A DNA stretch of 64,000 nucleotides from a virus. Both the position numbers and the translations under genes were made by a program. Of this stretch, positions 8,042 to 63,705 are shown piece after piece. Below the pieces are notes generated by a model. That model saw nothing but the letters and a program-made list of their open reading frames with translations, was not told where the DNA came from and did no database searches. The DNA is taken from IMG/VR virus record IMGVR_UViG_3300036795_000115, positions 4,739 through 68,738 of that record. The stretch is one strand, 5' to 3'. Positions within the stretch are counted from its first letter, which is position 1, and every line of letters starts with the position of its first letter.

Positions 8042-8053
8042 CCCCCGTGGGTG

Positions 8054-8083: not shown

Positions 8084-8130
8084 TCCAGCACCCGTACTAG
8101 TTCTGATGATCACCTGACTGTGTCGGGGAG

Positions 8131-13265: not shown

Positions 13266-13270
13266 TTGAG

Positions 13271-40400: not shown

Positions 40401-40543
40401 GCGACTGCCGGTGCGCTCAGCGCCTCGAAGAACTCGAACGCCGGTTGGCGCGGCTCGAGAACACCACCGCCGACATCGACCGCCATGTCTTGGCCGTCGA
40501 GGAGATCGTCACCCAGCTCGGGTCGGCGCCGACTAAGAGCTGA
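40397..40543 (+). CDS. small coiled-coil protein
   Basis: GAGG RBS; ATGA overlap. Confidence 0.6.
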   Translation: MSDCRCAQRLEELERRLARLENTTADIDRHVLAVEEIVTQLGSAPTKS

Positions 40544-40560
40544 TCCACCCCCTTTAACCC

Positions 40561-40616
40561 CAGCCCTAGCCCCGGGCGCCGTTCGTCTCCTGTCGGTTTG
40601 CCCGGGGCTGGGGCTG
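40561..40616 (+). terminator. stem-loop
   Basis: CAGCCCTAGCCCCGGGC...GCCCGGGGCTGGGGCTG. Confidence 0.55.
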
Positions 40617-40638
40617 GCCCACGTTTACAGGAGCCCAC

Positions 40639-41778: not shown

Positions 41779-41780
41779 TC

Positions 41781-42890
41781 ATGGCCTGGCGGTACTCCGA
41801 GGAGCTCAAGGCGCGGACCGGGAACGGGTGGTCTGACGAACCGGAGCCGGAGACATCACGGTTGGCGATCCCGGAGAAGACGTCTCCGAACTCGTCACCG
41901 CGCGGCGCAGCTCCGGTTCGGCTCGTCATCTTGCACACCGCCGAGGGTGCTCGGACGGTGGCGGAGTTGGGTAACTACTTCGCCGCCGCCGCTGTGCAGG
42001 TCAGCTCCCACGTCGGCATCGACGATGACGGCATCGAGCAGTACGTGGACTACGCCCGGGAGGCGTGGACCACCCGCTCGGCGAACCCGATCAGTGACAA
42101 CGCCGAGCTGTGCGGGTTCGCGGCGTGGACCCGGGAGCAGTGGATCAACGACCACATGCCGATGCTGCGCAACGCCGCCTCGTGGGTCGCCGCTCGGTGC
42201 ACCGCCCGGAACATCCCCGTCGTGAAGCTGACCCCGGCGCAGGTCGCCGCCGGCCAGCCGGGGGTGTGCGGGCACGTCGACTGGACGGTCGGCATGAAGG
42301 ACGGGACGCACACCGACCCCGGTCCGGGGTTCCCGTGGGACGTCGTCATTTCGCTCGCTCGAGGTGGAGGAGTTCCCGTGGCCCAGGATGTGACCGCCCA
42401 GCAGGTCGACGAAATCCACCAGCAGCTTCTCGGCGTGTTGAAGGCGTGGCCCGGTGGCATCACCGATGACAAGGGCACGCCCTACAACATGCTTCAGCAT
42501 CTACTTCGTGTCTCCGTGAGCACGAACCAGGCGACGCTGATGTTGGCGCAGCTGCTCAAGCGGGCGCAGGCGAAACCGGCGGGGATGTTGCGCTCGGACG
42601 TGAACGAGATCGCCGCCACGGTGGCGCAGCACCCGGCGATCGCGGCGCTGGCCGCTCCGGACATCGCCACCGTGTCGTTCTGGAAGGACGCGGCTGAGCG
42701 CGCGGTCAAGGCCTTCGCCGGCTCGGCCCTGACCTTGTTCGGCGCGGGGCCTCTGGATGTGTTGCACATCGACTGGGAGTCGACGTTGAGCCTGTCCGCC
42801 GGTGCGGCCGTCGTAAGCCTGCTGATGTCGTTGGCGTCGTCGCAGATCGGGGCGCCGGGCTCTCCGTCTCTCGTGAAGGGAAAGTCATGA
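41781..42890 (+). CDS. endolysin (Amidase_2) fused to an r1t-type holin domain
   Basis: VILHTAEG, SSH, ELCG, GH, HTDPG; C-terminal FWKDAAERAVKAFA...DW...LLMSLAS. Confidence 0.88.
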   Translation: MAWRYSEELKARTGNGWSDEPEPETSRLAIPEKTSPNSSPRGAAPVRLVILHTAEGARTVAELGNYFAAAAVQVSSHVGIDDDGIEQYVDYAREAWTTRSANPISDNAELCGFAAWTREQWINDHMPMLRNAASWVAARCTARNIPVVKLTPAQVAAGQPGVCGHVDWTVGMKDGTHTDPGPGFPWDVVISLARGGGVPVAQDVTAQQVDEIHQQLLGVLKAWPGGITDDKGTPYNMLQHLLRVSVSTNQATLMLAQLLKRAQAKPAGMLRSDVNEIAATVAQHPAIAALAAPDIATVSFWKDAAERAVKAFAGSALTLFGAGPLDVLHIDWESTLSLSAGAAVVSLLMSLASSQIGAPGSPSLVKGKS

Positions 42891-46490: not shown

Positions 46491-46492
46491 TC

Positions 46493-49400: not shown

Positions 49401-50050
49401 TCAGCGCGACCGGGGTACGGGAACAGCCGGCCACCGCCGCGCTCAGCGCGGTCACCTCGGTCAACGCGGTCACCGCCAGTTCCACCGACGGGGCCGCGAC
49501 CCTGGCCGCCAGTACGTCGGTTACGGCTGCCGCGCAGGTGGTCGCCGTCGCGTCCGCGTCCCTCGGCGCCACGACCTCGGTCACCGGCACCGGCACGGTC
49601 AATCAGCCGGCGACCGCAACCCTGTCCGCGAGCACGGCCGTCAACTCCACCGCGACACCCGGCACCCCCGGTGGTGCGTCGCTGCAAGCGGTCACCGTGC
49701 TCACCGCCCAAGCCGTACTGGGTGTGCAGGCCACGGCGTTGCTGTTCGCCGGCACCTCCGTGGTCGCGGTCGTGCACTTGTCCGCGTTCACCACCGCAGC
49801 GCTGTCCGCGGCCACATCAGTGACGGCGCTGGCACACCACCCCAGCTGGGAGCCCGACGTCGGGGACCCGGCGCTGCTCAACGCGGTGCACGCGTTGCCG
49901 CCGGTCACCGTGGCGTCGGTGGCCGCTACGGTGCGGCCGATGATCAGCATCCACGCCGGAATAGCCGCCGATGTGGTCGGCGTGTCAGCCGGTAGCCCCC
50001 GGACCCTGGGCCCGTTCGTGCAGGCCGGTGCACCGCAGGCCTTGGACTAG
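46493..50050 (+). CDS. Ala/Thr-rich fibre protein 2 with a polysaccharide lyase family 7 domain
   Basis: PRSELREM, AQIHD and YYAKAGCYPNS around 47200-47900; 20-aa repeats afterwards. Confidence 0.8.
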   Translation: MVATINAITTSTANTEAFSTNNTAFSLTTTANGACVVAVCITRSTTVSIASLSGGGVTEWDQVGVYSFAVNGSLPAQIFSVFVGRVTSFGSSQTVTATGSASLSSVSGSFDWQILSTSGMAAGTSWVVESSGKSLNTTSSTNITMPTLAPAAAGRAYIGYGDPLNSATNTGITSGYTGTIEASTGNQWISNLSVSTSQSPIGKQGSAGVSDAIGLLLYATNPDTSVATLLNIGSASGKNHFELQTALSGYGDITTASQADIAAGWNTDPQFVSVTADGAVQFSVRMDAPTTDGTAFPRSELREMATDGVTNYAFNASSGVHYIRGRSRITAITPTRKRVVTAQIHDGSTGDILKFYTQENSTTGVCELRTAVGGTGTGQPHLDNNYVLGTWFDWMIYINAGTWQLYYNDFATPVWDSVAYAAAGGTFVFSGATEYYAKAGCYPNSNETFDTATLYSTVELTNFQHWHTGWPTPTAIVNTATAALAASTSVTAAGAIAQAGTATLGATTSVSATGVREQPSTATLVATTSVAATGTYGAVSSAALSASSSVAAGAVRVQPATATLSAATSVAAAGVATTAGAAALAATTSVTAAAVATTTGTASLSATTSVAASAIDIAPGASTLVATTSVAATAFATTTGTANLAASTTVGASAVDLVAGSAALSAATSVTAAGFVSTAGSAALAASTAVTATGVGQTSGSASLTAATTVTAAGVRVQPATATLTSATTVTAAATAATTGTAALSAATSMGAGAVDIAPGAATIAAATSVTATGRQTFFATAALSSTTAVTASGVRTQPATATLASSTSATAAAFATTTATATLTAATTVTADTSGGSSGTAALTAITSVSATGVQIASAAAALAATTTVTAAANSTLGATAALAASGTVVAAGVREQPSAAALSSATSVTATGTATLGATAALTANTTVAASGAVTAVATAALAASTTVTAGAVREQPATAGLTAATTVSATGVREQPATAALSAVTSVNAVTASSTDGAATLAASTSVTAAAQVVAVASASLGATTSVTGTGTVNQPATATLSASTAVNSTATPGTPGGASLQAVTVLTAQAVLGVQATALLFAGTSVVAVVHLSAFTTAALSAATSVTALAHHPSWEPDVGDPALLNAVHALPPVTVASVAATVRPMISIHAGIAADVVGVSAGSPRTLGPFVQAGAPQALD

Positions 50051-50057
50051 GAGACTC

Positions 50058-50231
50058 ATGACGAGTGGCAATGACCCGCTGGCAACGTCGAGCTACCTCA
50101 TCTGCAAATACATGCGGTTCGGGTGCACGTGGGTGGCCCGCTGGCTACCCGGCGGCGAGATGCGCGCCCGCACCCAACGGATAGAGCACGAGAAGACCTG
50201 CCGGTTCCAGTACCAGCAGACCCGCCCCTAG
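50058..50231 (+). CDS. small hypothetical protein
   Basis: AGGAG RBS; C...GC.W...HE..C. Confidence 0.55.
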   Translation: MTSGNDPLATSSYLICKYMRFGCTWVARWLPGGEMRARTQRIEHEKTCRFQYQQTRP

Positions 50232-50370
50232 ACCGTTCGGCCGCCCTCGACCGGCTCGTCACCGGGGCGGTCGGACGTGCAAAAGCCCGCTCGATCAGCG
50301 TTGTAGGCAATCCCCGTGCCTCCGCTGGTCGAGCGGGCTCATTCGTGTGTCCGGGGTAAACTGCCCGGCG

Positions 50371-50451
50371 CAGGGTGTAGCTCAACGGTTCAGAGCGTCA
50401 GGCGGCCTAGGTAACGACCTGGATACCCCGGTAAAAGTCCGGGCGCCCTGC
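50371..50451 (+). ncRNA. tRNA-like element with an aberrant anticodon arm
   Basis: CAGGGTG/CGCCCTG acceptor, TAGCTCAACGGTTCAGAGC D-arm, CCCGG-TAAAAGT-CCGGG T-arm. Confidence 0.6.
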
Positions 50452-50454
50452 GCT

Positions 50455-50658
50455 TCAGGGGCGCTTCCGCATACACGCGGTGAACCCCGGCCAAGGCTGC
50501 GGACCCGCCTGGGTTACGGTGCGGTACCACGACCGGCTCCCCGGTCCGCGTGTCCAACCCGGCGGCATGTCCTCCGGCACGTCGTCGCCGTCGAGGATCA
50601 CCTCGTCGCCAACGGCCGGTTGATCGGGTGGGTCAACCCAAAGCCAGACGTCGCCCAT
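50455..50658 (-). CDS. hypothetical protein
   Basis: Coupled ORF. Confidence 0.5.
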   Translation of the reverse strand: MGDVWLWVDPPDQPAVGDEVILDGDDVPEDMPPGWTRGPGSRSWYRTVTQAGPQPWPGFTACMRKRP

Positions 50659-50843
50659 CAGGCCGCCGCCCCGCACTTCGCGCACACCGTGCTGGTCACA
50701 CCGCTGCGGTTGGTCGTCGTCACCCACATGTGCGGGTTGTCCGCCGAACCACACGACCCGGTGCCCATCAACCGGCGGATCCACGCACGGAGCTCGTCGA
50801 GCCGCTCAAGGTGCTCGGTGCGCCGGTAGAGATCGGGGTCCAC
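50658..50843 (-). CDS. small Cys-containing protein
   Basis: Coupled ORF. Confidence 0.5.
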   Translation of the reverse strand: MDPDLYRRTEHLERLDELRAWIRRLMGTGSCGSADNPHMWVTTTNRSGVTSTVCAKCGAAA

Positions 50844-50854
50844 GGCCCGGGAGC

Positions 50855-51298
50855 CTACCTCCGGTCAGACACAGCGGCCTGATTCGGGGGCTGCTTCTTC
50901 GCCCGGATCCGCCACGGGGTACGACACTTGCGGCAGCGTTCCCACTGCCCGGACTTACGGGCCCGGGCCACCGCCTCACCGCACGGCGGGCACGCTTTGA
51001 CCTTCGCCTCACGGTCTTCGACCGTGTTGTTCACAGTGTCCGGGTGCCGGTACGCCTTGAGGAACACGTACCCGACGAGTCCGACCACGGCGGCGAGCAG
51101 CCACGGCCAGGTCGTTGCCCAGTTGGCGACCACGGCGGCTAGGAGCAAACAGAACAGGGCGAACAGCACCACATAGCCCAGGGCGGCGTTGCCCTCCGTG
51201 CTGCTCGCCGTAGACCGGTACCTGCGCCGGCGGCCGCCGAACGACGTGCCCACCCGCAGCGGGGTGAACGGGATACGCGCGGACACCCACAACCTCAT
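50855..51298 (-). CDS. 2-TM membrane protein with a C-terminal Zn ribbon
   Basis: GAGGAG RBS; TM helices; CPPC...CRKC. Confidence 0.7.
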   Translation of the reverse strand: MRLWVSARIPFTPLRVGTSFGGRRRRYRSTASSTEGNAALGYVVLFALFCLLLAAVVANWATTWPWLLAAVVGLVGYVFLKAYRHPDTVNNTVEDREAKVKACPPCGEAVARARKSGQWERCRKCRTPWRIRAKKQPPNQAAVSDRR

Positions 51299-51364
51299 CG
51301 GGGTTCTCCTCGTTCCGGTGGTAGGTCATCGTCGCAGGTGAGCGGGGTGCTTATGTAGAGCCGG

Positions 51365-51580
51365 TCAGGTAATGGGCGGCTTGAACGAGTAGCCCCACAA
51401 CGACGACGTCAGTCGAACTCCGTTGGCGAACACCAACACGGACAGGAAGTCGGGCTCGTCCTTGTCGAACACCTTCTCGACGAGGGGGCTGGTGAACTCG
51501 CCGCCGGCGCAACAGTCCTCCCATGACACGTCGTAGACGATGCCCACGGTGAGATCGTCAGCGGCCACGGCGTCGGTCAC
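51365..51580 (-). CDS. hypothetical protein
   Basis: GGAGACACC-GTG start cassette. Confidence 0.6.
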   Translation of the reverse strand: MTDAVAADDLTVGIVYDVSWEDCCAGGEFTSPLVEKVFDKDEPDFLSVLVFANGVRLTSSLWGYSFKPPIT

Positions 51581-51864
51581 GGTGTCTCCCCGGTCGCATC
51601 GGTTCGCTTCAACACCGCACGGGCCTGATCGAGCGCCCCAACCAGGTCAGCGTCTTCGTCGTTCCATGCGTCCAACACCAGGGTCAGCGCGGTGGCCAGT
51701 TGTTCGTTCGCCGCATACAACGTTGCCCCCGGGTAGCAGTCCGGGCACACCACGTCGCCGCACGTTTGGCAGAACGCGTTCTTGCGTGGGGGCGGTGTCA
51801 GCGACGCGGACGGTGGTTCGTATCCGTCGGGTAAGCCCGGCGTCTTGATCGGCCAATCTCTCAC
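51577..51864 (-). CDS. hypothetical protein
   Basis: GGAGACACC-GTG start; CxxC pairs. Confidence 0.6.
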   Translation of the reverse strand: MRDWPIKTPGLPDGYEPPSASLTPPPRKNAFCQTCGDVVCPDCYPGATLYAANEQLATALTLVLDAWNDEDADLVGALDQARAVLKRTDATGETP

Positions 51865-52271
51865 GGTGTCTCCATCCGTACCGCAGCCTTCAGGTTCTCC
51901 TCTAGTCGGTCACGGATGTCGATCCACGCTCTCCGCCCGGCCTTGGGCAGGTCGTGGGCGAACCCTTCCCGGGCCAGGTGTTCGACCAGTGCGGTGGCGG
52001 CCTCCACGATTGGCGCCTGAGCGGCCACCTGGGCTCGGAGCTTTACCAACTCGTCCTGCGTGCTCCGGGAGACCGCGAACACGCGTAGCTTCTCGGCGGA
52101 CCTGATGATCGGCACCTCGTCATGCCTCGACTCCAGCAACTCGTCGGGCGTGTTGTCCGAGTAGATGGTGCAGCTGCACGACTTCGGGAACCGGCAGCAG
52201 CTGGGGTCGTATTCACCTTCGGAGCAGTAAGGCCACTGCTCGATGCACGACAGCAGACGTCGCTCGCTCAC
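51861..52271 (-). CDS. hypothetical protein
   Basis: YDPSCCRFPKSCSC motif; coupled ORF. Confidence 0.65.
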   Translation of the reverse strand: MSERRLLSCIEQWPYCSEGEYDPSCCRFPKSCSCTIYSDNTPDELLESRHDEVPIIRSAEKLRVFAVSRSTQDELVKLRAQVAAQAPIVEAATALVEHLAREGFAHDLPKAGRRAWIDIRDRLEENLKAAVRMETP

Positions 52272-52531
52272 GACTTGCCTCCGTTCAGGGCGTCGGTCAG
52301 GGCGGTCAGCAGCTCGGCGGTTTTCGCGCCGGGGCCAGGGCCAACTCCGACGCCCGCTCGGCAGTGTTCGACCAGTGCGGTGGCGGCCCGCTCCACCAGG
52401 CCACGCCGGTCAAACTCGGCCATGACGATCGGCAACGACGCGTCGACGGCGGGCACCTCGCCGTCCCGGATCGCAGTTCGGACGTTGTCCAGAGCATCGG
52501 CCAGTTCGTCGGGGGAGGGCTGCTCGCTCAC
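52268..52531 (-). CDS. hypothetical protein
   Basis: MSEQPSPDELA module. Confidence 0.6.
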   Translation of the reverse strand: MSEQPSPDELADALDNVRTAIRDGEVPAVDASLPIVMAEFDRRGLVERAATALVEHCRAGVGVGPGPGAKTAELLTALTDALNGGKS

Positions 52532-52962
52532 CGGCGCACCTCCCTGATCAGCGCCGCCAGCAAGTCGCCGTCCACCTCGTCAACCGAGTGCGGGTCGTAG
52601 CTCTCAGCCAGCCTGAACGCCGCCTGAACGATCGCCTCGCGCTCATTCAGCTCCGCATCGCGCACGGTCAGCAGCTCACCCCGCCGGTCGTACTCGGCCA
52701 GTAGGTACTGCAAGTCGCGGTTACCGGACCCGAGGTATACCTCCGCAGCTCGAAGGCGTGCACGCTGCACCAGGTCGGCCAGGCAGTCCGGGCCGTGCTC
52801 AATGCTGCCGTCGTCGCGCTCGCCCATCACCGTCTCCTCCCAACCAAACCCACCAACGCTGCTTGCCGTGTCCCGGCGTAGCGGGTTTGGCCCGTCGGTT
52901 GCCTCGTACAGGCCCAGCTCCTCGGCCTGCCGCACAAGACCCGACAGTGGGTCGTCGGTCAC
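52528..52962 (-). CDS. hypothetical mosaic protein
   Basis: Coupled ORF with an internal repeat cassette. Confidence 0.55.
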   Translation of the reverse strand: MTDDPLSGLVRQAEELGLYEATDGPNPLRRDTASSVGGFGWEETVMGERDDGSIEHGPDCLADLVQRARLRAAEVYLGSGNRDLQYLLAEYDRRGELLTVRDAELNEREAIVQAAFRLAESYDPHSVDEVDGDLLAALIREVRR

Positions 52963-53138
52963 GGTGACTCCTCGTCCGCGTTTGACCAGTGGTCATCTGC
53001 TCCACGTACGAGCTTGCAGGGGCCGACCCACACGGTCTCTCCCTTGACAATGGCGTCGACCGGGACGTTGTCGCGCCACTTGTCACCGTAGGCGTTAAAC
53101 AGGATCACGTAGCGGGCCGCACGTTCCTCGTTGGTCAC
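52959..53138 (-). CDS. hypothetical protein
   Basis: GGAGACACGG-GTG start. Confidence 0.55.
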   Translation of the reverse strand: MTNEERAARYVILFNAYGDKWRDNVPVDAIVKGETVWVGPCKLVRGADDHWSNADEESP

Positions 53139-53265
53139 GGTGTCTCCTCGGCTGATATCGTTGAGGGCATAGCCAGCCCACTGCGGTGAGACTGGAAGTG
53201 AGACCCAGGAGTTCCCGTCGGATGACGGGGCCTGGGGCTCGCGCCTTTCTCGGCTTTTGGCTTGC

Positions 53266-53643
53266 TCACTTCGTCTCCCCGTGTACCGCAGCAGCCAAAG
53301 CGTCCAGCGCTTTTTGGCTACACACGTTGGGTTCGTAGCCTGACCACGTCTTACCCCAGAACGGGTCGCCGGGTCCCGGACGTGCGGACTCGACCAGTGC
53401 GGTGGCGGCCTCCACAATGTCCCGCTGCCGGCCGATCGTCGCGCCGATCATGACGAAGTCCGCCGCGTACTTGACGTTGTCCGCCTTCAGTCGCACGATC
53501 TCCGCACCCCGCCGGTCGAACTCCGTCAGCAGCAGTCGTGCCGACAGGGCCGGGTCGTGCAGCTGTTCACCTTGGGCGAGCCGGCGCATGTTGCGCACGA
53601 ACATCGGCTCAGCCAGTTCGTCGGGGGAGGGCAGCTCGCTCAT
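53266..53643 (-). CDS. hypothetical protein
   Basis: MSELPSPDELA module; VEAATALVE. Confidence 0.6.
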   Translation of the reverse strand: MSELPSPDELAEPMFVRNMRRLAQGEQLHDPALSARLLLTEFDRRGAEIVRLKADNVKYAADFVMIGATIGRQRDIVEAATALVESARPGPGDPFWGKTWSGYEPNVCSQKALDALAAAVHGETK

Positions 53644-53753
53644 GGAGGCGGCGGCGCTGTGCGCACACCCCGGATGCTGACAGACGCCAGTACGGAGGTC
53701 CTGGCGGTGAATCGAATGCCGAGCCGTGATCCGCTCGTCGGCCAGTTCGTCGC

Positions 53754-54041
53754 TCACGGCTGACACTTCCCTTCGTGGCCTGCGTAGTCCCCGCACTGCT
53801 CCGGAGGCTGCAATCCGCTGTACAAGTGACCGAGACAGCGCACACGGCGAATCCGGTCCAACTCTTCCAAGGCTTCGCGGCGCTCCCTGATCAGCTTGCG
53901 TAGACGGGCGACGATGAGAAAGTCCAGCGGTTCGGCTTCGTCCAGTTCGTCGGAAGAGGGCTGCCGACCATGATCGTGTTGGCACTCCGGGCCGTCGTAG
54001 AAGTCGACCTCCCGGTGCATCGACTCGGGGGAGTCCATCAC
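53754..54041 (-). CDS. hypothetical protein
   Basis: GGAGG within a repeated leader; C...GH.G.C tail. Confidence 0.55.
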   Translation of the reverse strand: MMDSPESMHREVDFYDGPECQHDHGRQPSSDELDEAEPLDFLIVARLRKLIRERREALEELDRIRRVRCLGHLYSGLQPPEQCGDYAGHEGKCQP

Positions 54042-54373
54042 CGTCGCCTCCCAACCAAACCCACCAACACGGCCGCGCACAGCATTAGCCCCATGCATCC
54101 GGCGGCCTGCGCTGGGCCCGCCGTCCGCTCGTCATGCACCCGGGCGGTCAACTTCCGGCCCTGCCGTCTGGCCGCTTCCCCTCTGTGCTTTCCGTTCCAG
54201 CCCTCCAGGGAGCCGTCGGCTCGGCGGACGATGAAGGGGTCTCCATCTGTGGACCGCTTGTTGGGGTTCCGTTCGTAGGCGGACACGGCGCGTTCGTTGA
54301 GCTTGTGTCCGGCCCAGCGGACCTTGTTTGGGTCCACCTGCTGCCGGCGAGCCCGGTCATAACTACTCATCAC
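54038..54373 (-). CDS. ParB/Srx-like small protein with a C-terminal TM
   Basis: PFIVR...WNGKHR.EAARR.G resembles the ParB xGxHR motif. Confidence 0.5.
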   Translation of the reverse strand: MMSSYDRARRQQVDPNKVRWAGHKLNERAVSAYERNPNKRSTDGDPFIVRRADGSLEGWNGKHRGEAARRQGRKLTARVHDERTAGPAQAAGCMGLMLCAAVLVGLVGRRR

Positions 54374-55158
54374 GCCTCACTCTCGGTCTCCGGCTGGTAG
54401 CCCTCGCACAGGCAGTCGTGATCACAGTCGTGTGCGGCATGGCACCGCGCGTTCGGTGGCGGCGGAATGGCCCCTCCGTCGCCGTGCTTATGGGGCGAGT
54501 GACCGCAGGTGCAGCGAATCCATGGGACGTCCACCCCGCTCTCGGTGGGGGTGGCAGACAGCACCGCACGGGCTCGATGCGCCACAACTTGCCCGCCGAT
54601 GTCGATCTGCGCCAAGCTCTCTAGCTTCTCAACCGTCTCGGTCAGTGCGGTGGTCAGCAGGTCGACACGGGCCTTGAGCGCCTGCGCCTCCTCGAACCGA
54701 ACAGCGCACCGGCGAGCCAGTGAGTCACGTTCCCGCACGGCTTTGTCCAGCGCCTCGGTCGGCTGTTCGGCGGCTAGTACCTCGGCTACCGCATCCACTG
54801 CTCGGGCCCAGGAGTTGTGCGCCATCTTGGTGCCGTCGTAGAACGCCTCTCGGGCAGCTTCGGCGGCGCGGTCCCGAACATCCGGATCAAGGTCAGGCAT
54901 CACGCGCCTCCCTTCAAGTAGCTGGTGTGCACGGTTGTATTCCCGCTCCGTGCGCGCCTCGCCGTGGATCACGCCGCACAACCACGCCGCATCGGCCTTG
55001 GACAGCACGATCACGTCCCCGCCGAGCAACACGGCCGCCACGGCGTCGACCATCGCCAGGTACTGGTCGTCCTCGTGCCGATAACTTGCGTCCCAGAAAA
55101 TGGACTTGATCCGTTGGGCGGCGCGGTCCCGGACATCCGGCGGCAGGTCAGCGGACAT
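54370..55158 (-). CDS. hypothetical mosaic protein
   Basis: Duplicated PDVRDRAA...VDAVA module. Confidence 0.6.
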   Translation of the reverse strand: MSADLPPDVRDRAAQRIKSIFWDASYRHEDDQYLAMVDAVAAVLLGGDVIVLSKADAAWLCGVIHGEARTEREYNRAHQLLEGRRVMPDLDPDVRDRAAEAAREAFYDGTKMAHNSWARAVDAVAEVLAAEQPTEALDKAVRERDSLARRCAVRFEEAQALKARVDLLTTALTETVEKLESLAQIDIGGQVVAHRARAVLSATPTESGVDVPWIRCTCGHSPHKHGDGGAIPPPPNARCHAAHDCDHDCLCEGYQPETESEA

Positions 55159-55463
55159 CGGACACCTCGGCCTCGAACGGGATTTCGACCGCGTCGATCA
55201 CAGCCCCGATCAGCGGGTTGGCCGTGGACGGGTAGTCGCACTCCTCGCAGTGATCGTCCCCCGGGGCCTCAAGCGGGTTGCCGCAGGCGCAGGTGGGCTC
55301 GTCCTTGTCGTCTTCGTCCTCAGCCCAGTACTCGGGCGGCAACATCGCGTCGTAGTGGGCTTGCGCGCGGTCGAATCCGCTCACCGCTTCACCGTCATAA
55401 CGATGAGCAGCAGGGTGATCACGGACAGCTGGAACTGGATCAAGGCGATCTGGGTGGACGTCT

Positions 55464-55649
55464 TCATGGCGAGTCCTTGTGTAGGTCGGAACGGAAACCC
55501 TGACCCTTGAGCTCGATCGCCTGAACCTCTTCACGGCTGTACCCGCGTTTCTCCGGGATGCCGTGCCGGCGCATGACGACCCGAACGTAGTCGGGCTGAA
55601 TGCCCAGGAACTTGGCGACTTCATCGCGTGTCATCAAGGGTTCTTCCAC
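55464..55649 (-). CDS. excisionase/MerR-like HTH protein
   Basis: LMTRDEVAKFLGIQPDYVR...GQGFRSDL; leaderless promoter TTGCTC-17-CATAGT-6-GTG. Confidence 0.75.
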   Translation of the reverse strand: MEEPLMTRDEVAKFLGIQPDYVRVVMRRHGIPEKRGYSREEVQAIELKGQGFRSDLHKDSP

Positions 55650-55693
55650 GCTCTAACTATGACACAGTGCGAGTGAAAGAGCAAGTCAGACGG

Positions 55694-57196
55694 CTAGCCA
55701 GCCCTCTTGAGCTCGCCGTGGAAATACTCTTTCCCCAGCGCCACAGCGTCGATCTGATCATCATGAAGCGTCTTCGGATACGCCTTCATCTGCGCCTCAA
55801 GACCCGAGATCGGCCGAGCATGCACCACCATCGGCGGTCGGCGCAGGTAGCAGTCGTGCAGGTCCGTGATCCGGTCAATCTTCGAACGACGCAAGTTCAC
55901 CGCGAAGATCTTCACCCCCGGAGGCAGCGGCGACAGCGTGTTCTCGACGTGATCGCCACCGTTGGTCACATCCACCACGATGAGCCGGATCCCGTTCTTA
56001 CGGACGATCGAGTGCACCAGCTCCCGCAACTTGTCCGGCTTCAACCGCACACCCATCACCCGCTCCACCACCACGCGGCGCACATTGGCGGCGTAGGACA
56101 GCATGGCGATACCGGTCTCGTCGTTCGACTTCTTCGACTTCGACGCCGGGTCCACGATCAGGATCCGCTCCGTCACATGCGCCAACAGCTTGTCGTCGTA
56201 AGTGATGTCGTCGTCATCCCAGAACGTGCCGTTCTCATCCACCGGGGCGTTGTCGAAGTTCTTCGCGTACCCGCGCGGGTTTCGCAGCCGTTCGGCCCGC
56301 TGCCACTCCAGCGCCCACTTCGGCTCCCACAGCGACCGCTCTTCGCCGGTGTCCGGGTCTTCGACGATGCCCTTGAAGTGGTGCACCTCGATGTTCTCCT
56401 CGGCAACCCACGCCTCGCCCTCGACGAGATCATGAATGATGGAGCCCGCCATCACCGTTGTGCCCGCTACCTGGACCACGGCGCTGAAGTTGCAGGGCAA
56501 GATGACGTCGATCAGATCCTCGAGCCGCTTGCGCTTCATCTCGACGCTGTAACGGCCCTTCTTCGGCTCGATTTCGTCGAAGAGCAGAGCGTCGGGGCGC
56601 AGGTTGTCCCACTTCACGCCCAGGGTCGCTGAGTTCATCCCCTTCACCATGATGATCGAACCGTTCGCGGCCAGGTACGTCGTGTCGTTGTCCTTCAACG
56701 CCCGGCCGCCGGTCTTCATCGGTGTACAGAGCTCGGGAAAATCGCGCATGAGGCGCTCGTTCTGGGAGAATTGCAGCTTGAGCGTGGCCAGGTGCAGCTT
56801 CGCCTGATCCTCCGTGTCCGAGTACACGACGATGAACTTGCGATGCCCAAACGCCATCGCCCACAGCGGAAGGATCAAGAACAGCCAGGTGGTTTTGGCC
56901 CCCTCGCGCGGAGCTACCCAGGCGTCGCGGATCTCCTTCGGGCCGATGTCGGTGCGCATCCACCGCTTCGCCGACATCGCCAGGGCCACGTGCAGGTCAC
57001 TCAGCGCGTGCAGCAGCCCGGGCAGGGTTACGTGCGGGGCCAGGTAGTAGAGCGCGAACAGGATCGGCGAGGTGCGGCACCAGTCCCGGCGCTTGTTGAT
57101 GCATTCCTGGGTGTGCACTCGGAACGCGGAGTGTTTCAGCTTCGCGGTGTAGAGCTCGGGGGTGAACCCGGGCGGGCCTTCGAGGCGGCGTTTCAT
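55694..57196 (-). CDS. second terminase large subunit (Terminase_6-like), not linked to a portal
   Basis: APREGAKTT, RPDALLFDEIE, VAGT, IVDPA, DETG, HDDQIDA. Confidence 0.85.
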   Translation of the reverse strand: MKRRLEGPPGFTPELYTAKLKHSAFRVHTQECINKRRDWCRTSPILFALYYLAPHVTLPGLLHALSDLHVALAMSAKRWMRTDIGPKEIRDAWVAPREGAKTTWLFLILPLWAMAFGHRKFIVVYSDTEDQAKLHLATLKLQFSQNERLMRDFPELCTPMKTGGRALKDNDTTYLAANGSIIMVKGMNSATLGVKWDNLRPDALLFDEIEPKKGRYSVEMKRKRLEDLIDVILPCNFSAVVQVAGTTVMAGSIIHDLVEGEAWVAEENIEVHHFKGIVEDPDTGEERSLWEPKWALEWQRAERLRNPRGYAKNFDNAPVDENGTFWDDDDITYDDKLLAHVTERILIVDPASKSKKSNDETGIAMLSYAANVRRVVVERVMGVRLKPDKLRELVHSIVRKNGIRLIVVDVTNGGDHVENTLSPLPPGVKIFAVNLRRSKIDRITDLHDCYLRRPPMVVHARPISGLEAQMKAYPKTLHDDQIDAVALGKEYFHGELKRAG

Positions 57197-57630
57197 GCTG
57201 ATTCGTCGGCTTCCCAGTCGTCCCAGTCCTCGCCCGATTCATTATCGGAATCGACGGGCGGGGCGTCGTCGTACAGTTTCAGGCGGGCCGCGTTCTGCTG
57301 ACGGACCTCGCCGGCGAGGCGGGCGAAGTCGGCGTTGGAGCAGTCTTCGCCGAGCCGTTCGAACGTCATGCGGGTGAGTTGATCAAGCTCGTCATGGGCT
57401 ATGACCTGCATCAACGTCCGAGAGGGACGGTCATGTCTCAACATCAACATTTCGATACGGCGGTAGAACGTCGCCCTCGAGATGCACAAATCCTTCGCAA
57501 TATCGTTCGGCGACTCACGCCGCAGTAACCGTGCGTAGGCCAGCGCTGCCTCAGTGTCGATGACCTCAGGAGGCTTATTCGGATCCGCGCTCTCGTAGCG
57601 GCCGGAATGATCCGTCGCCGGCCGGTCCAT
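57193..57630 (-). CDS. HTH protein, putative small subunit for the second terminase
   Basis: DIAKDLCISRATFYRRI; coupled to the second TerL. Confidence 0.65.
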   Translation of the reverse strand: MDRPATDHSGRYESADPNKPPEVIDTEAALAYARLLRRESPNDIAKDLCISRATFYRRIEMLMLRHDRPSRTLMQVIAHDELDQLTRMTFERLGEDCSNADFARLAGEVRQQNAARLKLYDDAPPVDSDNESGEDWDDWEADESA

Positions 57631-57638
57631 CGTCCTAC

Positions 57639-57872
57639 CTATTCCCAGTCAGAGGAATCGGACGCCGCCGGGATCTTGGGCAACCGGTCGTCCATGTGGA
57701 TGTCATGACACAGATGCGCGGACACGATCGCGGTCGCACCGATGATTCCGGTGGACACCAAGCTCATGATGTCCCCGTGGTGTGAGACCTGAATCGACAA
57801 CGTCACCCCAGAGCCCCAGAAGATGGCGAAGGAGACCCACATCAAGATCTCCTTGAGCCGGGTACGGTTCAC
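57639..57872 (-). CDS. 2-TM membrane protein
   Basis: Two hydrophobic helices. Confidence 0.6.
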   Translation of the reverse strand: MNRTRLKEILMWVSFAIFWGSGVTLSIQVSHHGDIMSLVSTGIIGATAIVSAHLCHDIHMDDRLPKIPAASDSSDWE

Positions 57873-57951
57873 CGCCGGCAGCCCTTGCCGTCACACAACG
57901 GGCAGACTGTCCACTCGCCGTCGCCGCCCCGGTACAGCCCGCCGTCGCACA

Positions 57952-58098
57952 TCACGGGTTTCTCTTCTGCTTACCGCCGGTCAGCTTCGACCCGGTGACG
58001 AGCTTGCCCTTGCCGCCGAAGCTGCCCATCGACTTCGGCTGTTGGGCCTTGACTTTGCGGGTTGTGGTGGTGCGCACGGTCTTCGTGAAGAACCCCAT
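57952..58098 (-). CDS. small basic protein (below the ORF-track cutoff)
   Basis: MGFFTKTVRTTTTRKVKAQ...; tightly packed with neighbours. Confidence 0.5.
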   Translation of the reverse strand: MGFFTKTVRTTTTRKVKAQQPKSMGSFGGKGKLVTGSKLTGGKQKRNP

Positions 58099-58099
58099 G

Positions 58100-58237
58100 T
58101 CAGCAGTTCCCCCGGTTCCGGTAGTTGTCCCGGCCGCGCTTCATATCGGCCTCGCTCCGGGTCGGGTTGGCCTTCACCGCCCGGTCCTGGATGGACTTCC
58201 AGTCCTTGTCCGAGATCGTGTTCGCGCGGCGGCCCAT
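58100..58237 (-). CDS. small basic protein (below the ORF-track cutoff)
   Basis: MGRRANTISDKDWKSIQDRAVKANP...; TGATG coupling. Confidence 0.55.
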   Translation of the reverse strand: MGRRANTISDKDWKSIQDRAVKANPTRSEADMKRGRDNYRNRGNC

Positions 58238-58509
58238 CAGGACTCGTCCTCGATCCCGTGGAACGCCTCGAGCTCGCGCAGGAACAGCTCGAGGAGCCAG
58301 GCCCGGTTCGCCAGTACCCGTTTGTTGGTACCGCTCGTCGCGTCCCGCTGCTCCTGCAACGCCTCCAGGGCGATACGCAGCTCGGTGGCCAGGACGGGGC
58401 CGTGGATGTCGTGCTCGTGCAGGCGCGGGCGGACCCGGCGCGCGGGTGGCTCGTTGTGGCCGTTCATGGTTGAAGTAGCGCCCGCGTCGGGGTCGCTGTA
58501 AGAATCCAT
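58237..58509 (-). CDS. hypothetical protein
   Basis: GAGG RBS; first gene of the leftward operon. Confidence 0.55.
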   Translation of the reverse strand: MDSYSDPDAGATSTMNGHNEPPARRVRPRLHEHDIHGPVLATELRIALEALQEQRDATSGTNKRVLANRAWLLELFLRELEAFHGIEDES

Positions 58510-58593
58510 GTGCCTCTGCTCCAGGTAGCTCTGGTGCGGGTGGAAGTCCTGGCTAGCAGTTCGAGCTGCTGGTCAGGGCGTTGGGAGTCTCAA

Positions 58594-58638
58594 CCGTACA
58601 TAAGAGGATTGGTCAGGACGAACCCGTACTATACACGG
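58594..58638. other. candidate attP
   Basis: Imperfect dyad CCGTACATAAGAGGATTGGTC-AG-GACGAACCCGTACTATACACGG just upstream of the integrase. Confidence 0.45.
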
Positions 58639-60105
58639 GTGCCGTCCAGTCAGGGAACCTCTCACGCACCGTTACGGGTGGGACTTTACTGCCGCGTCAG
58701 CCACGATCCCACTGGTCGGGGAACTTCCGTAGCTGACCAGGAGAAAGAAGGGCGCGCTTGGTGCGCCGCGAACGGGCACCTGGTGGCCTGGCTGATTGTC
58801 GACAACGACATCAGTGCGAGCCGGTACAGCAAGAAGGAACGCCCCGGGTTCACCGAAGTGCAGCGACGGTTGGCCGGCGCCGACCCGGTGGAGATCCTGT
58901 GGGCGTGGGAGTCGTCGCGGTTCACCCGCGACCTGAAGGTGTACGCGCAAGTCCGGGCGCTGTGCGAGCGCTACGAGGTGCTGTGGTCCTATCACGGCAA
59001 GACCTACGACATGTCCCGGGCGGACGACCGGTTCGCCACCGCGCTGGACGTGATCCTGGGCGAGCGGGCGTCGGACGACACGAGTGACCGAGTACAGAGA
59101 GCGGTGGATGCCCGGGTGGAAGCCGGTACAGCGCACGGACGAGTCCCGTACGGCTACCGGGCTGTCTACCACCCGCACACCGGGGCTCCGATCGGCCGGG
59201 AACCGGACCCGGGCACCGCGCCGGTAGTGAAGGAGATCGTGCGCCGGGTACTCGGCGAAGAGCCCAGCTACCAGATCGCCAAGGATCTCAATCAGCGCGG
59301 CGTGATCTCCCCGCACGGGTTCCGACTGCAGCGCACCGGTCAGCCGGTGGACGACGCTCGACCGTGGACGATCAGCCTGGTCCGGCAGCTCGCGGTGAAC
59401 CCCACCTACGCCGGACTGCGGACATACGACGGCAAGGTGAAGGGCGATGCCACCTGGGAGGCGCTGATCTCCGGCGCGGAGCATCGGCGCGTGGTGGCCC
59501 GCTTTTCCGACCCGGCACGGAAGGGAACTCGGGACCGCGAGGTGAAGCACCTGCTGGCTGGGATCGTGCTGTGCGGGGTGTGCGGCGACCCGTGCCGGCG
59601 GGTGGTGAACCACGGCAGCCCCAGCTACTCGTGCCGCACCAACCACTGCGTGTCCCGGGTGCAGTCGGCGGTGGACGCCCTGGTGACCGAGACGCTGCTG
59701 CTGTGGTTGGAGCGCCCCAACGCGGCGGAAGTATTCACCGACCGCGATGACAGCGCCGAGGTCGACGCGGCCGTTGCGGAGCTCGCGGAGCTGCGGGCGC
59801 GCCTCGCCGAGTTCGAGCGGTCCGCTGATCAGCCGGGCGGGATCTCCGCCGCGTCACTGGCCCGTCGGGAGGCGCATTACCTGCCACTGATCGAGGACGC
59901 CCGTCGGCGCACCATCCCGACGCACGTACCGGAGGTCATCCGGGATCTCGTGGAGGCCGAGGACGTGCGGGAACGGTGGGCGGATCTGGCCCCTTTGGTG
60001 CGACGGTCCGTGGTGCGGCACCTGATGACGGTGCGGATCATGCGGACGTCGAGTCGCGGGTCGCACGGGTTCGATCCGTCGTGCGTCGACATTGCGTGGC
60101 GGTGA
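58639..60105 (+). CDS. int: large serine recombinase (integrase)
   Basis: LYCRVS catalytic Ser, DNDISAS, RPGF, SSRFTR, PYGY, NPTYAG, LLAGIVLCGVCG Zn ribbon. Confidence 0.95.
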   Translation: MPSSQGTSHAPLRVGLYCRVSHDPTGRGTSVADQEKEGRAWCAANGHLVAWLIVDNDISASRYSKKERPGFTEVQRRLAGADPVEILWAWESSRFTRDLKVYAQVRALCERYEVLWSYHGKTYDMSRADDRFATALDVILGERASDDTSDRVQRAVDARVEAGTAHGRVPYGYRAVYHPHTGAPIGREPDPGTAPVVKEIVRRVLGEEPSYQIAKDLNQRGVISPHGFRLQRTGQPVDDARPWTISLVRQLAVNPTYAGLRTYDGKVKGDATWEALISGAEHRRVVARFSDPARKGTRDREVKHLLAGIVLCGVCGDPCRRVVNHGSPSYSCRTNHCVSRVQSAVDALVTETLLLWLERPNAAEVFTDRDDSAEVDAAVAELAELRARLAEFERSADQPGGISAASLARREAHYLPLIEDARRRTIPTHVPEVIRDLVEAEDVRERWADLAPLVRRSVVRHLMTVRIMRTSSRGSHGFDPSCVDIAWR

Positions 60106-60143
60106 CCGGCGGGGGCTGGGCCGGAGCCGCTGGGGAGGAGGCT

Positions 60144-60452
60144 TTAGTTCGGGTTGGTGAGGTCGAACTCATCGGGTAACCACTGCTCCGCGATCGTGAA
60201 CATGGGGGCAGCTGCCTCGCCGTGTTCGATGTACATGACCGCGTCACTGATCATTCTGCGGAAGGTGATGAACGGTAGTCCTGGTTGGATCCAGATGACT
60301 CGTTCTTGTCGACTGGCCGCAACAGGTTGCGACCCCAGGCTGTCCTCAATTAGTATCCTGATCCCGTAAACGAGTCGGACGACGTTCCGCAGCCACCGAG
60401 CCGGTGTACTGGCGTAGAACGGGTCCTCGAGCTGTGGCGTTGCCTGCGTCAT
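60144..60452 (-). CDS. degenerate ImmA/IrrE-like protein
   Basis: VIWIQPGL...RRMISDAVMYIEHG in place of IWL...RCTLAHELxHxERG; between repressor and integrase. Confidence 0.5.
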   Translation of the reverse strand: MTQATPQLEDPFYASTPARWLRNVVRLVYGIRILIEDSLGSQPVAASRQERVIWIQPGLPFITFRRMISDAVMYIEHGEAAAPMFTIAEQWLPDEFDLTNPN

Positions 60453-60602
60453 TAACGCTCCCGTGGGAGGGCTTCCAGTAGGTTGAAACCCCCTGTGAAA
60501 TACCTGTGAACAGTTGAGGATTCACTGAGGGCGCTGAGGAAACTACAGCCGGCACACGGAAGTGGGTACGGTTCAGCGCCGAACGGTTGCGTCGGGTAAC
60601 AG

Positions 60603-61067
60603 TTAAGGACGTGCTTGCGTCCTCCCGGGCCCAGCGTCTTGGTCCGTTTGGTCTAACGTGCCGTTATAAAATGCAACGTCCGCTACCTCATTCGGACGCA
60701 GTGGCGGCTGTGGGTTACGGCCAGGTGGCTGAGGGTCTAGTTCGTCCAGGTGATCAGTGACGCGCGCCTTGATCTCCTCGAGCAATTGCAGGGTACTGAG
60801 TTCGGCGGCGTCGACGGGGGGCGCCGGCGGCTGACCCGCTTCCTCAGAAGTGATGTAGCCGGCCGCGACGAGCGCGGTGAGAATGGGGATGCCCAGCGCG
60901 TCCGCGAGTTTGCGGATGTTGGCTAGCGACGGTTCCTGGTGGGGACGGTTCACCCACTGACTGATCGCACTGGGCGGCAGCCCTGATTCGGTGGCGGCGC
61001 GAGCGTAGTTCCAGCCTCGTTGGTCGAGTTGCTGTTTGACCCACTCGCCCCAGGTCTGTGCTGTCAC
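60603..61067 (-). CDS. XRE-family immunity repressor
   Basis: AATESGLPPSAISQW...PSLANIRKLADALG...ALVAAGYIT; leaderless TATAGT-7-GTG. Confidence 0.9.
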   Translation of the reverse strand: MTAQTWGEWVKQQLDQRGWNYARAATESGLPPSAISQWVNRPHQEPSLANIRKLADALGIPILTALVAAGYITSEEAGQPPAPPVDAAELSTLQLLEEIKARVTDHLDELDPQPPGRNPQPPLRPNEVADVAFYNGTLDQTDQDAGPGRTQARP

Positions 61068-61218
61068 GGCACGCACTATACGTGCGCGCACGCTACACGC
61101 ATACGCGATCGGTGTCCCCCTTTAGGCAGGTATCTCAGCTACCTACGGGGGAGGACGTGCGTGCCCGCTACAGATCAACGGGGATGTGCGCGTGGAACAA
61201 GTCATGCATGCGCGCCTG

Positions 61219-61247
61219 TTGCGTCAGCGCATGCCCGGTGCTAGCGT
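61219..61247 (+). promoter_or_regulatory. early lytic promoter
   Basis: TTGCGT-17-TAGCGT, divergent from the repressor; surrounded by GCGCACG/CGTGCG-type repeats. Confidence 0.55.
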
Positions 61248-61296
61248 CATCAACACGTTCACCAGAAAGTCATGCGTGACCCGAAGGAGACAGTAC

Positions 61297-61560
61297 GTGG
61301 ACCCCACCGTGAAGCTCAGAGCGGGGCAGCTCCGTAAATATCGGGCGATGGCGAACCTGATGAGAGACACGGACCTCGCTGACCGGATGGGCGTACACCG
61401 CTCGACGGTAATCCGAACCATCTCCGGCGACGCGGTCCTGTCCGGTCGGTTCATCGCGGCCCTAATTACGATCTTCCACCCGCTCACGTTCGACGACCTG
61501 TTCGAAATCTGCCCCCCGCTCACCAGCGAGCAGGAACACGAACACGCCGGCGCGGCCTGA
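61297..61560 (+). CDS. Cro-like HTH protein
   Basis: DLADRMGVHRSTVIR...FIAAL...FDDLFE; AAGGAG RBS. Confidence 0.85.
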   Translation: MDPTVKLRAGQLRKYRAMANLMRDTDLADRMGVHRSTVIRTISGDAVLSGRFIAALITIFHPLTFDDLFEICPPLTSEQEHEHAGAA

Positions 61561-61724
61561 TGGACGAGCACCTGACCGGGCTCAGCCCGGAACTCATCGC
61601 ACTCATCCGCAAGGCCGCAGCGGCGCACGTTGTCGCGGCGCCGGCACCGACCGCTGATCAGATCAAGGTGCTGGCGGCGATCTTCCGGGTGCGGGACACC
61701 ACCGTCAGCCGAGGAGCTGCGTGA
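61560..61724 (+). CDS. small protein (APAPT.DQ..LAAIF)
   Basis: TGATG coupling at both ends; below the ORF-track cutoff. Confidence 0.6.
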   Translation: MDEHLTGLSPELIALIRKAAAAHVVAAPAPTADQIKVLAAIFRVRDTTVSRGAA

Positions 61725-62134
61725 TGGAAATCCCCGAAGAGCCAGCCAAGTACGGCACATTCGAACGCGCCTTCGAGCGAGGCATCGAGGCGGCCCTCGA
61801 GATGCACGCCGCCCCTCCGCACTTCTGCGACCTACCCCTCACGGCGTGCCGGCGGCCGCGAACCAGGCCGCCCGGCGTGAGTAAGCCTCTCCCCTGGCAG
61901 TGCGACGTCTGCGGAAACGTGTGGAAGTGGCACACCCGGCACGTCGGCAAGCACGTCATTACCGGCTGGGACCTCCGCTGGGAGGGCTTCGTCGACTGGC
62001 ACACCAGGAAGCTGCTGAACATGGCCGACGTCGCCGCGATGGAAGCCCGCAACGCCGAGATCCGCCGCGAGCACGACGAGATCCGCCGAGTGGTCCAGGA
62101 ACGCGAAGCGGAACTCAAGGAGCAGCAGCTCTAA
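61724..62134 (+). CDS. hypothetical Zn-ribbon protein
   Basis: HFC...WQCDVCG..W. Confidence 0.65.
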   Translation: MEIPEEPAKYGTFERAFERGIEAALEMHAAPPHFCDLPLTACRRPRTRPPGVSKPLPWQCDVCGNVWKWHTRHVGKHVITGWDLRWEGFVDWHTRKLLNMADVAAMEARNAEIRREHDEIRRVVQEREAELKEQQL

Positions 62135-62968: not shown

Positions 62969-63043
62969 GGCACGGCATGGCATGGCGGTGTTCCGTTGGG
63001 CTTGGCGTGGCCCGGTGCGGTCCGGCATGGCTTGGCAAGGAAT
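62969..63043 (+). repeat. GGY-NN pentamer array 3 (15 units)
   Basis: GGCAC GGCAT GGCAT GGCGG TGTTC CGTTG GGCTT GGCGT GGCCC GGTGC GGTCC GGCAT GGCTT GGCAA GGAAT. Confidence 0.9.
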
Positions 63044-63088
63044 GGGCGAACGGCATACCTCGGAGTTCGAGTCTCCGGCGCCCACGCA
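63043..63088 (+). ncRNA. tRNA-like separator B
   Basis: TGGGCG-11nt-TCGGAG-TTCGAGT-CTCCGG-CGCCCA-CGCA. Confidence 0.75.
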
Positions 63089-63089
63089 C

Positions 63090-63149
63090 GACGTGGCGGG
63101 GTACGGCGACGCAAGGCACGGCCTGGCCTGGCGTGGTTCGGCAGGGGTT
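63090..63149 (+). repeat. GGY-NN pentamer array 4 (12 units)
   Basis: GACGT GGCGG GGTAC GGCGA CGCAA GGCAC GGCCT GGCCT GGCGT GGTTC GGCAG GGGTT. Confidence 0.9.
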
Positions 63150-63168
63150 TCACAACACGGAGGTTGCA

Positions 63169-63705
63169 GTGTTTGAAGTGAAGAACGAAGTTCCGCAGTG
63201 GCAACGGGTCTACGACCTGATCGTCGCAGCGGAGATTGATCAGGTCATCAGCTACGACGAGTTCGACGCAGCTCTCGGTCTCAACTTCCGCGCGTACTCG
63301 CGCCCCGGCCTGGACAAGGCCACGAAGGCGCTCGAGCACAACAACCGCCGCACCGTTGAGGTAGTCCGCAACAAGGGCTACCGAGTGGTACGAGCTGAGG
63401 AACACGAACGGCTCGCCCGAAAGCACCAGCTCAAGGGACTGCGCCAGACAAAGCGGTCCATGCGCAAGGTTCGCTCGGCGGACCGCTCGCAGCTGTCCTC
63501 TACGGACGGTCAGCGCCTGGACGCCATGGAGGTCCACTACGGGCAGCTTGCCGCCGCTCAGCGCCGTAACGCCACTCGCATCGAAGAGGTGGACAGCGCC
63601 CGCAAGGCGGACAAGCGCGACACCAGTGAAGAGCTGGCGATGCTGGCTAGCCAGCTGGAGCGTCTGCAGGCCCGGATCGAGAAGCGGGACCGGAGCGCGA
63701 CCTAG
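63169..63705 (+). CDS. wHTH/coiled-coil protein downstream of the repeat locus
   Basis: GGAGG RBS then GTG; VISYDEF..ALG...VRNKGYRVV wing. Confidence 0.7.
   Translation: MFEVKNEVPQWQRVYDLIVAAEIDQVISYDEFDAALGLNFRAYSRPGLDKATKALEHNNRRTVEVVRNKGYRVVRAEEHERLARKHQLKGLRQTKRSMRKVRSADRSQLSSTDGQRLDAMEVHYGQLAAAQRRNATRIEEVDSARKADKRDTSEELAMLASQLERLQARIEKRDRSAT

Follow-up and report, generated by a model that had tools for sequence, protein, structure and literature searches.

The record IMGVR_UViG_3300036795_000115 of IMG/VR comprises 68,738 bp, of which bases 4739-68738 were analysed (64,000 nucleotides, hereafter the window, to which all positions refer unless stated otherwise). Its source is a temperate actinophage from soil, and contigs from four soil-metagenome runs match parts of the window at 85-100% likeness (15 runs, all soil metagenome). 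A contig binned with a Nocardioides metagenome-assembled genome gives the sole, weak hint at a host. The first and last 127 bases of the record are identical, hence the assembly is circularly closed (68.6-kb circle), and CheckV completeness is 100%. Adjoining the integrase gene, this genome carries a pair of genes, TerS2 and TerL2, for a predicted small and large terminase subunit. The pair lies 35 kb from the head module, which consists of a TerS1-like gene, the portal-linked large terminase TerL1, portal, S78 protease and HK97-fold capsid protein, and in which TerL1 has lost its nuclease residues. The following features were identified at the TerS2/TerL2 locus:

55694-57196, minus strand: TerL2, large terminase (500 aa, ATG start; match to phrog_38)
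57193-57630, minus strand: TerS2, small-terminase homolog upstream of TerL2 (145 aa, ATG start)
55464-55649, minus strand: conserved excisionase-like helix-turn-helix (HTH) gene directly downstream of TerL2 (61 aa)
57639-58509, minus strand: four small translationally coupled genes (90, 45, 48 and 77 aa, the last product hydrophobic), leading the operon from the integrase side into TerS2
58510-60105, plus strand: serine integrase, divergent from the TerS2/TerL2 operon (PF00239 and PF07508, Resolvase and Recombinase; phrog_95, E 2.1e-78)

The second terminase pair and its locus

Both terminase open reading frames (ORFs) lie exactly as described in the initial annotation, and all motifs named there are present in the TerL2 translation: APREGAKTT (Walker A), LLFDEIE (Walker B) and AGT(T) (C-motif) of the ATPase as well as VDPA, DETG and HDDQID of the nuclease. 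TerL2 matches phrog_38 "terminase large subunit" over residues 41-492 (E 3.1e-49), whereas TerL1 belongs to phrog_19179 and phrog_9, in agreement with the earlier assignment of the two proteins to different families. The ATPase motifs GAKTT, LLFDE and AGT line up with those of canonical relatives, the acidic residues of the nuclease (D of VDPA, D/E of NDETG, D of VDVTNGG and DD..D of HDDQID) are kept across the TerL2 clade, and the C-terminal nuclease domain of the family aligns at the profile level with PDB 8dgc, "Terminase, large subunit" (E 1.6e-4). PF17289 was found on TerL2 relatives; TerL2 itself had no Pfam match at E 0.01, phmmer searches of TerL2 and TerL1 against PDB sequences returned nothing useful, and a scan of the genome contigs with profile A2 gave no match. 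TerL2 possesses the additional-strand catalytic E (ASCE) ATPase and the RNase-H-like nuclease of phrog_38/Terminase_6-like large terminase subunits and lies outside the head module, away from the portal gene. Judged by these motifs, it is predicted to be a catalytically intact large terminase with packaging/cutting activity.

The same family comprises the canonical phrog_38-type large terminases of actinophages and of MiniFlayer and Mulchroom (33-37% identity over at least 90% of the length), which share the catalytic motifs and have a homologous small subunit encoded upstream. In these phages, however, this TerL is the sole terminase and the portal comes next (gene order of MiniFlayer: TerS-TerL-portal-scaffold-capsid), whereas the TerS2/TerL2 pair is detached from the head genes, located by an integrase and accompanied by another TerL. 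The Streptomyces satellite records MiniFlayer and Mulchroom are annotated with identical terminal repeats.

The gene upstream of TerL2 had been described as a coupled HTH gene, and this description can be extended. TerS2 and TerL2 overlap by 4 nt (ATGA at 57193-57196), and the TerS2 family (A8) aligns by hhalign with the proteins encoded upstream of canonical TerLs (A7) at 98.0% (E 2.9e-13, 146 columns). The A7 set includes the annotated TerS of Microbacterium phage OscarSo, and a BLASTP chain was also used to establish this homology. Direct BLASTP comparison of TerS2 with the annotated small terminases of OscarSo and MiniFlayer yielded no alignment, so the relationship is visible at the profile level only. 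TerS2 has a weak HTH_23 match, and its AlphaFold2 model (predicted local distance difference test score, pLDDT, 69) displays an N-terminal HTH, two long helices and an acidic disordered tail. Foldseek with this model retrieved no PDB match at E 0.001; the small terminases of G20c and Sf6 appeared only at E ~1-1.7 among TetR-type HTH proteins. The score of a predicted TerL2-TerS2 complex was not specific relative to the control. By homology, N-terminal HTH, helical core and position just upstream of TerL2, TerS2 is a small-terminase homolog.

The TerL2 operon, extending from 58509 to 50855, is tight, leftward and translationally coupled, and stands back-to-back with the serine integrase, the true start of which is probably located downstream of 58510. 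Apart from the terminase pair, it encodes small proteins without known function. Homologs of the four small genes occur in the same order in L083, L084 and L128, as do homologs of the excisionase-like gene in the equivalent position; the product of the latter has a weak HTH_17 match (E 0.002, below the cut-off). In line with the earlier description of the pair as lying next to an integrase and away from portal and capsid genes, no structural (portal/capsid) match was obtained for 16 neighbouring minus-strand ORFs. A repeat search around TerS2 revealed only short two- or three-copy matches.

Alternatively, the pair might be explained by a chimeric assembly, by a satellite that has integrated, or as what is left of a second, decaying phage. 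The satellite phages MiniFlayer and Mulchroom are among its nearest named relatives (34-37% identity), and in comparisons of the window with G001 and L084, TerS2-TerL2 is the only part shared at the DNA level (83% nucleotide identity), the flanks being unaligned there. A chimeric contig, considered in the initial annotation, is contradicted by the recurrence of the same locus in independent assemblies (G001/L083, L084, G012/L128 and G027), the small flanking genes being the same in at least five of them, and the record closes on itself by its 127-bp overlap. Rather than forming a separate element, the cassette is situated inside a circular 68.6-kb genome with flanks syntenic to the phage backbones of relatives, and only one integrase was found among the window ORFs scanned. 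The window has a GC content of ~65% with a strong bias at third codon positions (GC3), and the GC3 of the pair (0.87) matches the rest of the genome. Both ORFs are intact, and the ratios of nonsynonymous to synonymous substitution rates (dN/dS) between close pairs amount to 0.09-0.12 for TerL2 and 0.13 for TerS2. Thus, the TerL2 gene is conserved and under purifying selection, contrary to the earlier provision that it might prove not to be conserved. A chimeric, satellite or remnant origin is highly improbable; the pair is a real, intact and selected second terminase.

The portal-linked terminase TerL1

TerL1 directly precedes the portal gene within the head module:

16560-17006, plus strand: TerS1-like gene heading the structural operon (phrog_226, E 2.4e-15)
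17848-19440, plus strand: TerL1, portal-linked large terminase (phrog_19179 and phrog_9)
19583-20875, plus strand: portal protein, directly after TerL1 (PF04860, E 5.6e-80; phrog_12)

No Pfam match was obtained for TerL1 at E 0.01, and none of the 2041 named phage records matched is more than 60% identical to it, all being below this value. TerL1 was aligned with TerLs from the cultured actinophages Kromp, KeAlii, Kalimba and Floof and with HK97 TerL (PDB 6z6d), which revealed the following differences:

Nuclease motif 1: GFDGS in the cultured phages, GFHGS in TerL1
Nuclease motif 2: D-P/V..YW in the cultured phages, CTPTGW in TerL1
Nuclease motif 3: K-I/V-D-A in the cultured phages, SISAF in TerL1
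Walker A: GK[S/G] in the cultured phages, GKD in TerL1
Walker B: D-E in the cultured phages, T-E in TerL1

All three nuclease carboxylates of TerL1 are replaced (D to H, D to T and D to S), which bears out its earlier designation as nuclease-dead. Eighty TerL1 relatives from IMG/VR were examined, one of which was misread and dropped. The three acids are likewise lost in 22/22 relatives of at least 61% identity, while the aspartates are kept in 24/24 relatives of 45-51% identity and in 33/33 more distant ones. The clade with dead TerL1 is monophyletic (support 100) and sister to an intact group. TerL1 agrees with HK97/L5-type TerLs (phrog_9; PDB 6z6d) in its location ahead of the portal, its length and its ATPase core, but differs from them by the replaced nuclease aspartates and by a Walker exchange, with D instead of S/T in Walker A and T instead of D in Walker B.

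With respect to the ATPase, the Walker A lysine, the catalytic glutamate and the TNA C-motif are invariant, and the Walker B threonine aligns with the D of LDET in HK97 TerL. The combination of GKD with T-E in TerL1 and its clade resembles a reciprocal exchange within the Mg-ligand pair. The GKD/T-E pair also occurs in fragment L111 (50% identity to TerL1), there together with intact nuclease aspartates; L111 may be an evolutionary intermediate, and the Walker swap therefore probably does not abolish function. Taken from these residues, the ATPase of TerL1 is probably alive. The TerL1 ORFs are intact and their dN/dS is 0.14-0.25 (six pairwise comparisons): TerL1 is not decaying but, like TerS2 and TerL2, under purifying selection.

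Distribution, exchange and possible roles of TerS2/TerL2

Two trees of TerL2 were calculated by quick IQ-TREE runs (103 and 76 rows). In each, one bipartition (SH-like approximate likelihood ratio test, SH-aLRT, 99) separates 28 (resp. 32) rows from every row with a portal-sized ORF directly downstream. The smaller side of the split holds TerL2 of the window and all members of readable DNA context, namely 13 (window, L083, L084, L085, L086, L114, L115, L006, L128, L004, L160, L200 and L202), none of which (0/13) is followed by a portal-sized ORF. The full set of catalytic residues is present in 27/28 clade members examined. For eight members, where the record is long enough, another TerL was found in the same genome: the dead phrog_9 type in G000, G001, G002, G003, G008 and G027, a P74-26-like TerL adjoining the portal in G007, and an intein-bearing phrog_9-type TerL in G013. 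Based on tree topology and gene context, the TerL2 clade is a distinct group of portal-unlinked terminases sharing genomes with another, portal-linked TerL.

Further observations concern two of these companions. An "AE" Walker B in G007 was considered as a sign of a dead ATPase and rejected, since LittleFella, a cultured Gordonia phage, shares it; gp5 of LittleFella (522 aa), considered as a hidden TerL2, was rejected for lack of similarity. The companion TerL of G013 (L204) is an 855-aa provirus protein with a large insertion in the P-loop region, encoded in the same provirus as a TerL2-clade gene. Inteins insert at TerL P-loops, and from its sequence shape the insertion reads as an intein.

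A TerL2-clade gene was detected in 6/7 judgeable records with dead TerL1 (G000, G001, G002, G003, G008 and G027; not G017), in 0/9 sister records with intact TerL1 (four of these at least 90% complete) and not in the Parafrankia soli genome (6/7 vs 0/10; Fisher p = 0.0006). Both traits map to one branch, so this co-occurrence is in effect one evolutionary event rather than a series of independent trials. Left out as uninformative were G004 and G005 (dead TerL1, 55% complete, no TerL2 seen), because they end ~32 kb downstream of TerL1, short of the ~36 kb where TerL2 is expected, as well as G012, G015 and G016 (44-53% complete; orphan-clade TerL2, no phrog_9 TerL). TerL2-positive genomes occur in all three sub-branches of the dead-TerL1 clade, and TerL2 therefore looks ancestral to it. 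In the TerL1 tree, G017 is nested among TerL2-positive genomes, so the cassette was most likely lost there. Its integrase side encodes a tyrosine integrase, a hydrolase and a 710-aa FtsK/SpoIIIE-like DNA translocase (L287, 5950-8082; phrog_12531, E 4e-26).

Tailed phages that replicate via circles or concatemers need a terminase nuclease, and a scan covering part of the ORFs in the window revealed no terminase-type nuclease apart from TerL2. Since TerL2 is the only one found and such phages need one, TerS2/TerL2 would most likely recognise and cut DNA for a TerL1 motor unable to cut. According to this reading, which we favour tentatively and hold to be somewhat short of an even chance, TerS2 would recognise the packaging site, TerL2 would make the initiating and terminating cuts in replicated phage DNA, and TerL1, docked on the portal, would supply translocation. 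Among the roles proposed in the initial annotation, that of a cutting partner for the nuclease-dead TerL is the best supported, owing to the clade-wide nuclease loss and the co-occurrence of the two traits; it does not account for G017 or for the clade members with intact-looking companions in G007 and G013.

Comparison of the loci points to mobility of the pair. In G001 and L084, where the flanks cannot be aligned at the DNA level, the small flanking genes on both sides are nevertheless homologous to those of the window and keep their order; in place of the serine integrase, these loci have a tyrosine integrase encoded on the opposite strand (L083 coordinates 6919-8166). A serine recombinase is present at the locus in the window and in G012 (L128), the flanks of which resemble those of the window (serine integrase, 50% identity; small genes, 85%, 94% and 53%), but its TerS2/TerL2 allele is only 36% identical. 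G027 has the allele of G012 beside a TerL1 resembling that of G001. Across the six genomes, identities to the window are 91, 35, 31, 38 and 36% for TerL2 and 74, 69, 63, 64 and 74% for TerL1. From these alignments, the cassette behaves as a unit exchanged between relatives in a conserved locus.

Several findings weigh against a dedicated cutter for TerL1. The TerL1 proteins of G001 and G027 are both 74% identical to that of the window, while their TerL2 identities are 91% and 36%, respectively; the TerL2 allele type is thus uncoupled from the TerL1 type, which disfavours tight co-adaptation. G017 (69,151 bp, CheckV 100%, contig ends with an identical 148-bp stretch) has a dead TerL1, but neither profile finds a TerL2 in it, and relaxing the threshold for profile A5 to E 1 makes no difference, so TerL2 appears dispensable at least in this genome. 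The companion TerLs of G007 and G013 look catalytically intact, and the role of the clade is therefore not simply replacement of a lost nuclease. TerL2 retains a full ATPase, which a pure cutter does not need, and the Walker B change from D to T might disable the TerL1 ATPase after all.

The two last points lead to a different division of labour, in which TerS2/TerL2 is the whole working terminase and TerL1, a relic without catalytic activity, is retained at the portal for structural or assembly purposes. TerL2 does retain both ATPase and nuclease motifs, and TerL1, devoid of the Walker B aspartate and of all nuclease acids, is still constrained at the dN/dS given above. This is nonetheless unlikely, considering that G017 keeps TerL1 without any TerL2, that the Walker A lysine, catalytic glutamate and C-motif of TerL1 are invariant and GKD/T-E occurs together with an intact nuclease in L111, and that TerL2 alleles of 36% identity are swapped without a matching change in TerL1.

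The dispensability of TerL2 in G017, in turn, agrees with the cassette being an accessory module that does not package its own genome, the nuclease loss of TerL1 being compensated otherwise. We regard this as a possible but rather doubtful explanation, and the same applies to its variants taken together, i.e., an anti-phage weapon or exclusion factor, packaging of other DNA (e.g., in situ from the integrase-proximal prophage end, as in lateral transduction) or a selfish cutting cassette. Transduction and sabotage of superinfecting phages, both proposed in the initial annotation, belong here as rival readings. Clade members are found as additional terminases in three unrelated backbones, two of them with an intact main TerL; divergent alleles in identical flanks are typical of specificity or conflict genes; and the pair lies between the integrase and the excisionase-like gene. 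Conversely, no known defence family was matched: PADLOC assigned 0 families to TerL2 and TerS2, and eight neighbours gave only two weak matches (E 0.002 and 0.004). Moreover, gain of TerL2 and loss of the TerL1 nuclease map to the same lineage, and no other terminase-type nuclease turned up among the window ORFs scanned.

Returning to the cutting role of TerS2/TerL2, its most explicit form would be an obligate two-terminase machine with TerL1 as pure translocase and TerS2/TerL2 as exchangeable cutter, the clade as a whole representing accessory terminases in terminase-owning phages; this wider proposal is speculative, and we consider it possible without expecting it.

Further features of the genome and comparison with known systems

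Upstream of the TerS1/head operon lies a 600-bp gap in which the 14-mer GACCGGTCACTGAT (palindromic core GACCGGTC) is present in four exact copies at 15991-16068; elsewhere in the window this 14-mer has only two matches with two mismatches (6 in total vs 0.62 expected by chance). The array is a candidate packaging-recognition or late-promoter array. The product of the TerS1-like gene includes the sequence LLGLNPSA, which we take to be TerS-like; the library label of phrog_226 is "minor tail protein", as is that of the KeAlii gene in the equivalent position.

Upstream of the head module, a Ku-like DNA-end-binding protein is encoded at 11544-12329 on the minus strand (phrog_4873, E 2e-53). Ku was rejected as a marker of the dead-TerL1 clade, since of eight related records searched only G001 and G017 have it, whereas G002, G003 and four sister records do not. 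Two adjacent tRNA-Gln genes (anticodons TTG and CTG) at 13194-13342 adjoin a gene for a RuvB-like AAA+ protein at 13389-14693 on the minus strand (PF05496, E 8e-40). ARAGORN predicted an additional 89-nt tRNA-Ala(GGC) at 62997-63085 within ORF 62977-63705, which may be a false call. Three proteins encoded at the end of the tail region (39407-42890, plus strand) are one with a sortase domain, one with a subtilase domain and an amidase joined to a holin domain of the r1t type. A 1241-aa ORF (46325-50050, plus strand), flanked by the lysis genes and the TerL2 operon, has an alginate-lyase domain (PF08787, E 3e-20) and, at codon position 2, an unusually high GC content (0.66). Megablast of positions 50000-62000 against phage records gave no match, and a promoter/terminator scan of 50000-61500 yielded counts no higher than the shuffled expectation.

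The terminase is, in textbooks, a single enzyme, one TerL cutting and pumping the DNA. A non-cutting motor is known from phi29, the packaging ATPase of which has no nuclease domain and packages unit-length protein-primed genomes. TerL1 would resemble it as a non-cutting motor, but keeps the nuclease-domain sequence without its acids and is accompanied by a second terminase. Satellites of the phage-inducible chromosomal island type (PICI) and their capsid-forming counterparts (cf-PICI) redirect packaging with terminase subunits of their own. As in these, an integrase-proximal terminase could redirect packaging specificity here; unlike them, the cassette resides in a 68.6-kb phage with a full structural module, and neither element boundaries nor a second integrase were found. 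The nearest entry in the literature searched is Pham3880 of cluster C1 mycobacteriophages, a further terminase-like family of actinophages, tabulated as "terminase-like protein" apart from TerL1 and TerL6 (PMC5050341); in the relevant passages of that paper, no nuclease-dead partner is described. The full-text literature searched, which did not cover subscription journals and supplements, did not describe the combination of a second terminase with a portal-linked TerL that lacks its nuclease, and a portal-unlinked clade of the TerL2 type was likewise absent from it.

A nuclease-less TerL together with a second, intact terminase would allow the coordination of cutting with translocation to be tested directly, and the TerL2 clade could just as well represent a new module for packaging redirection or phage conflict. 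The wide use of TerL as a one-per-genome marker and as a predictor of packaging strategy rests on assumptions that are both broken by such genomes.

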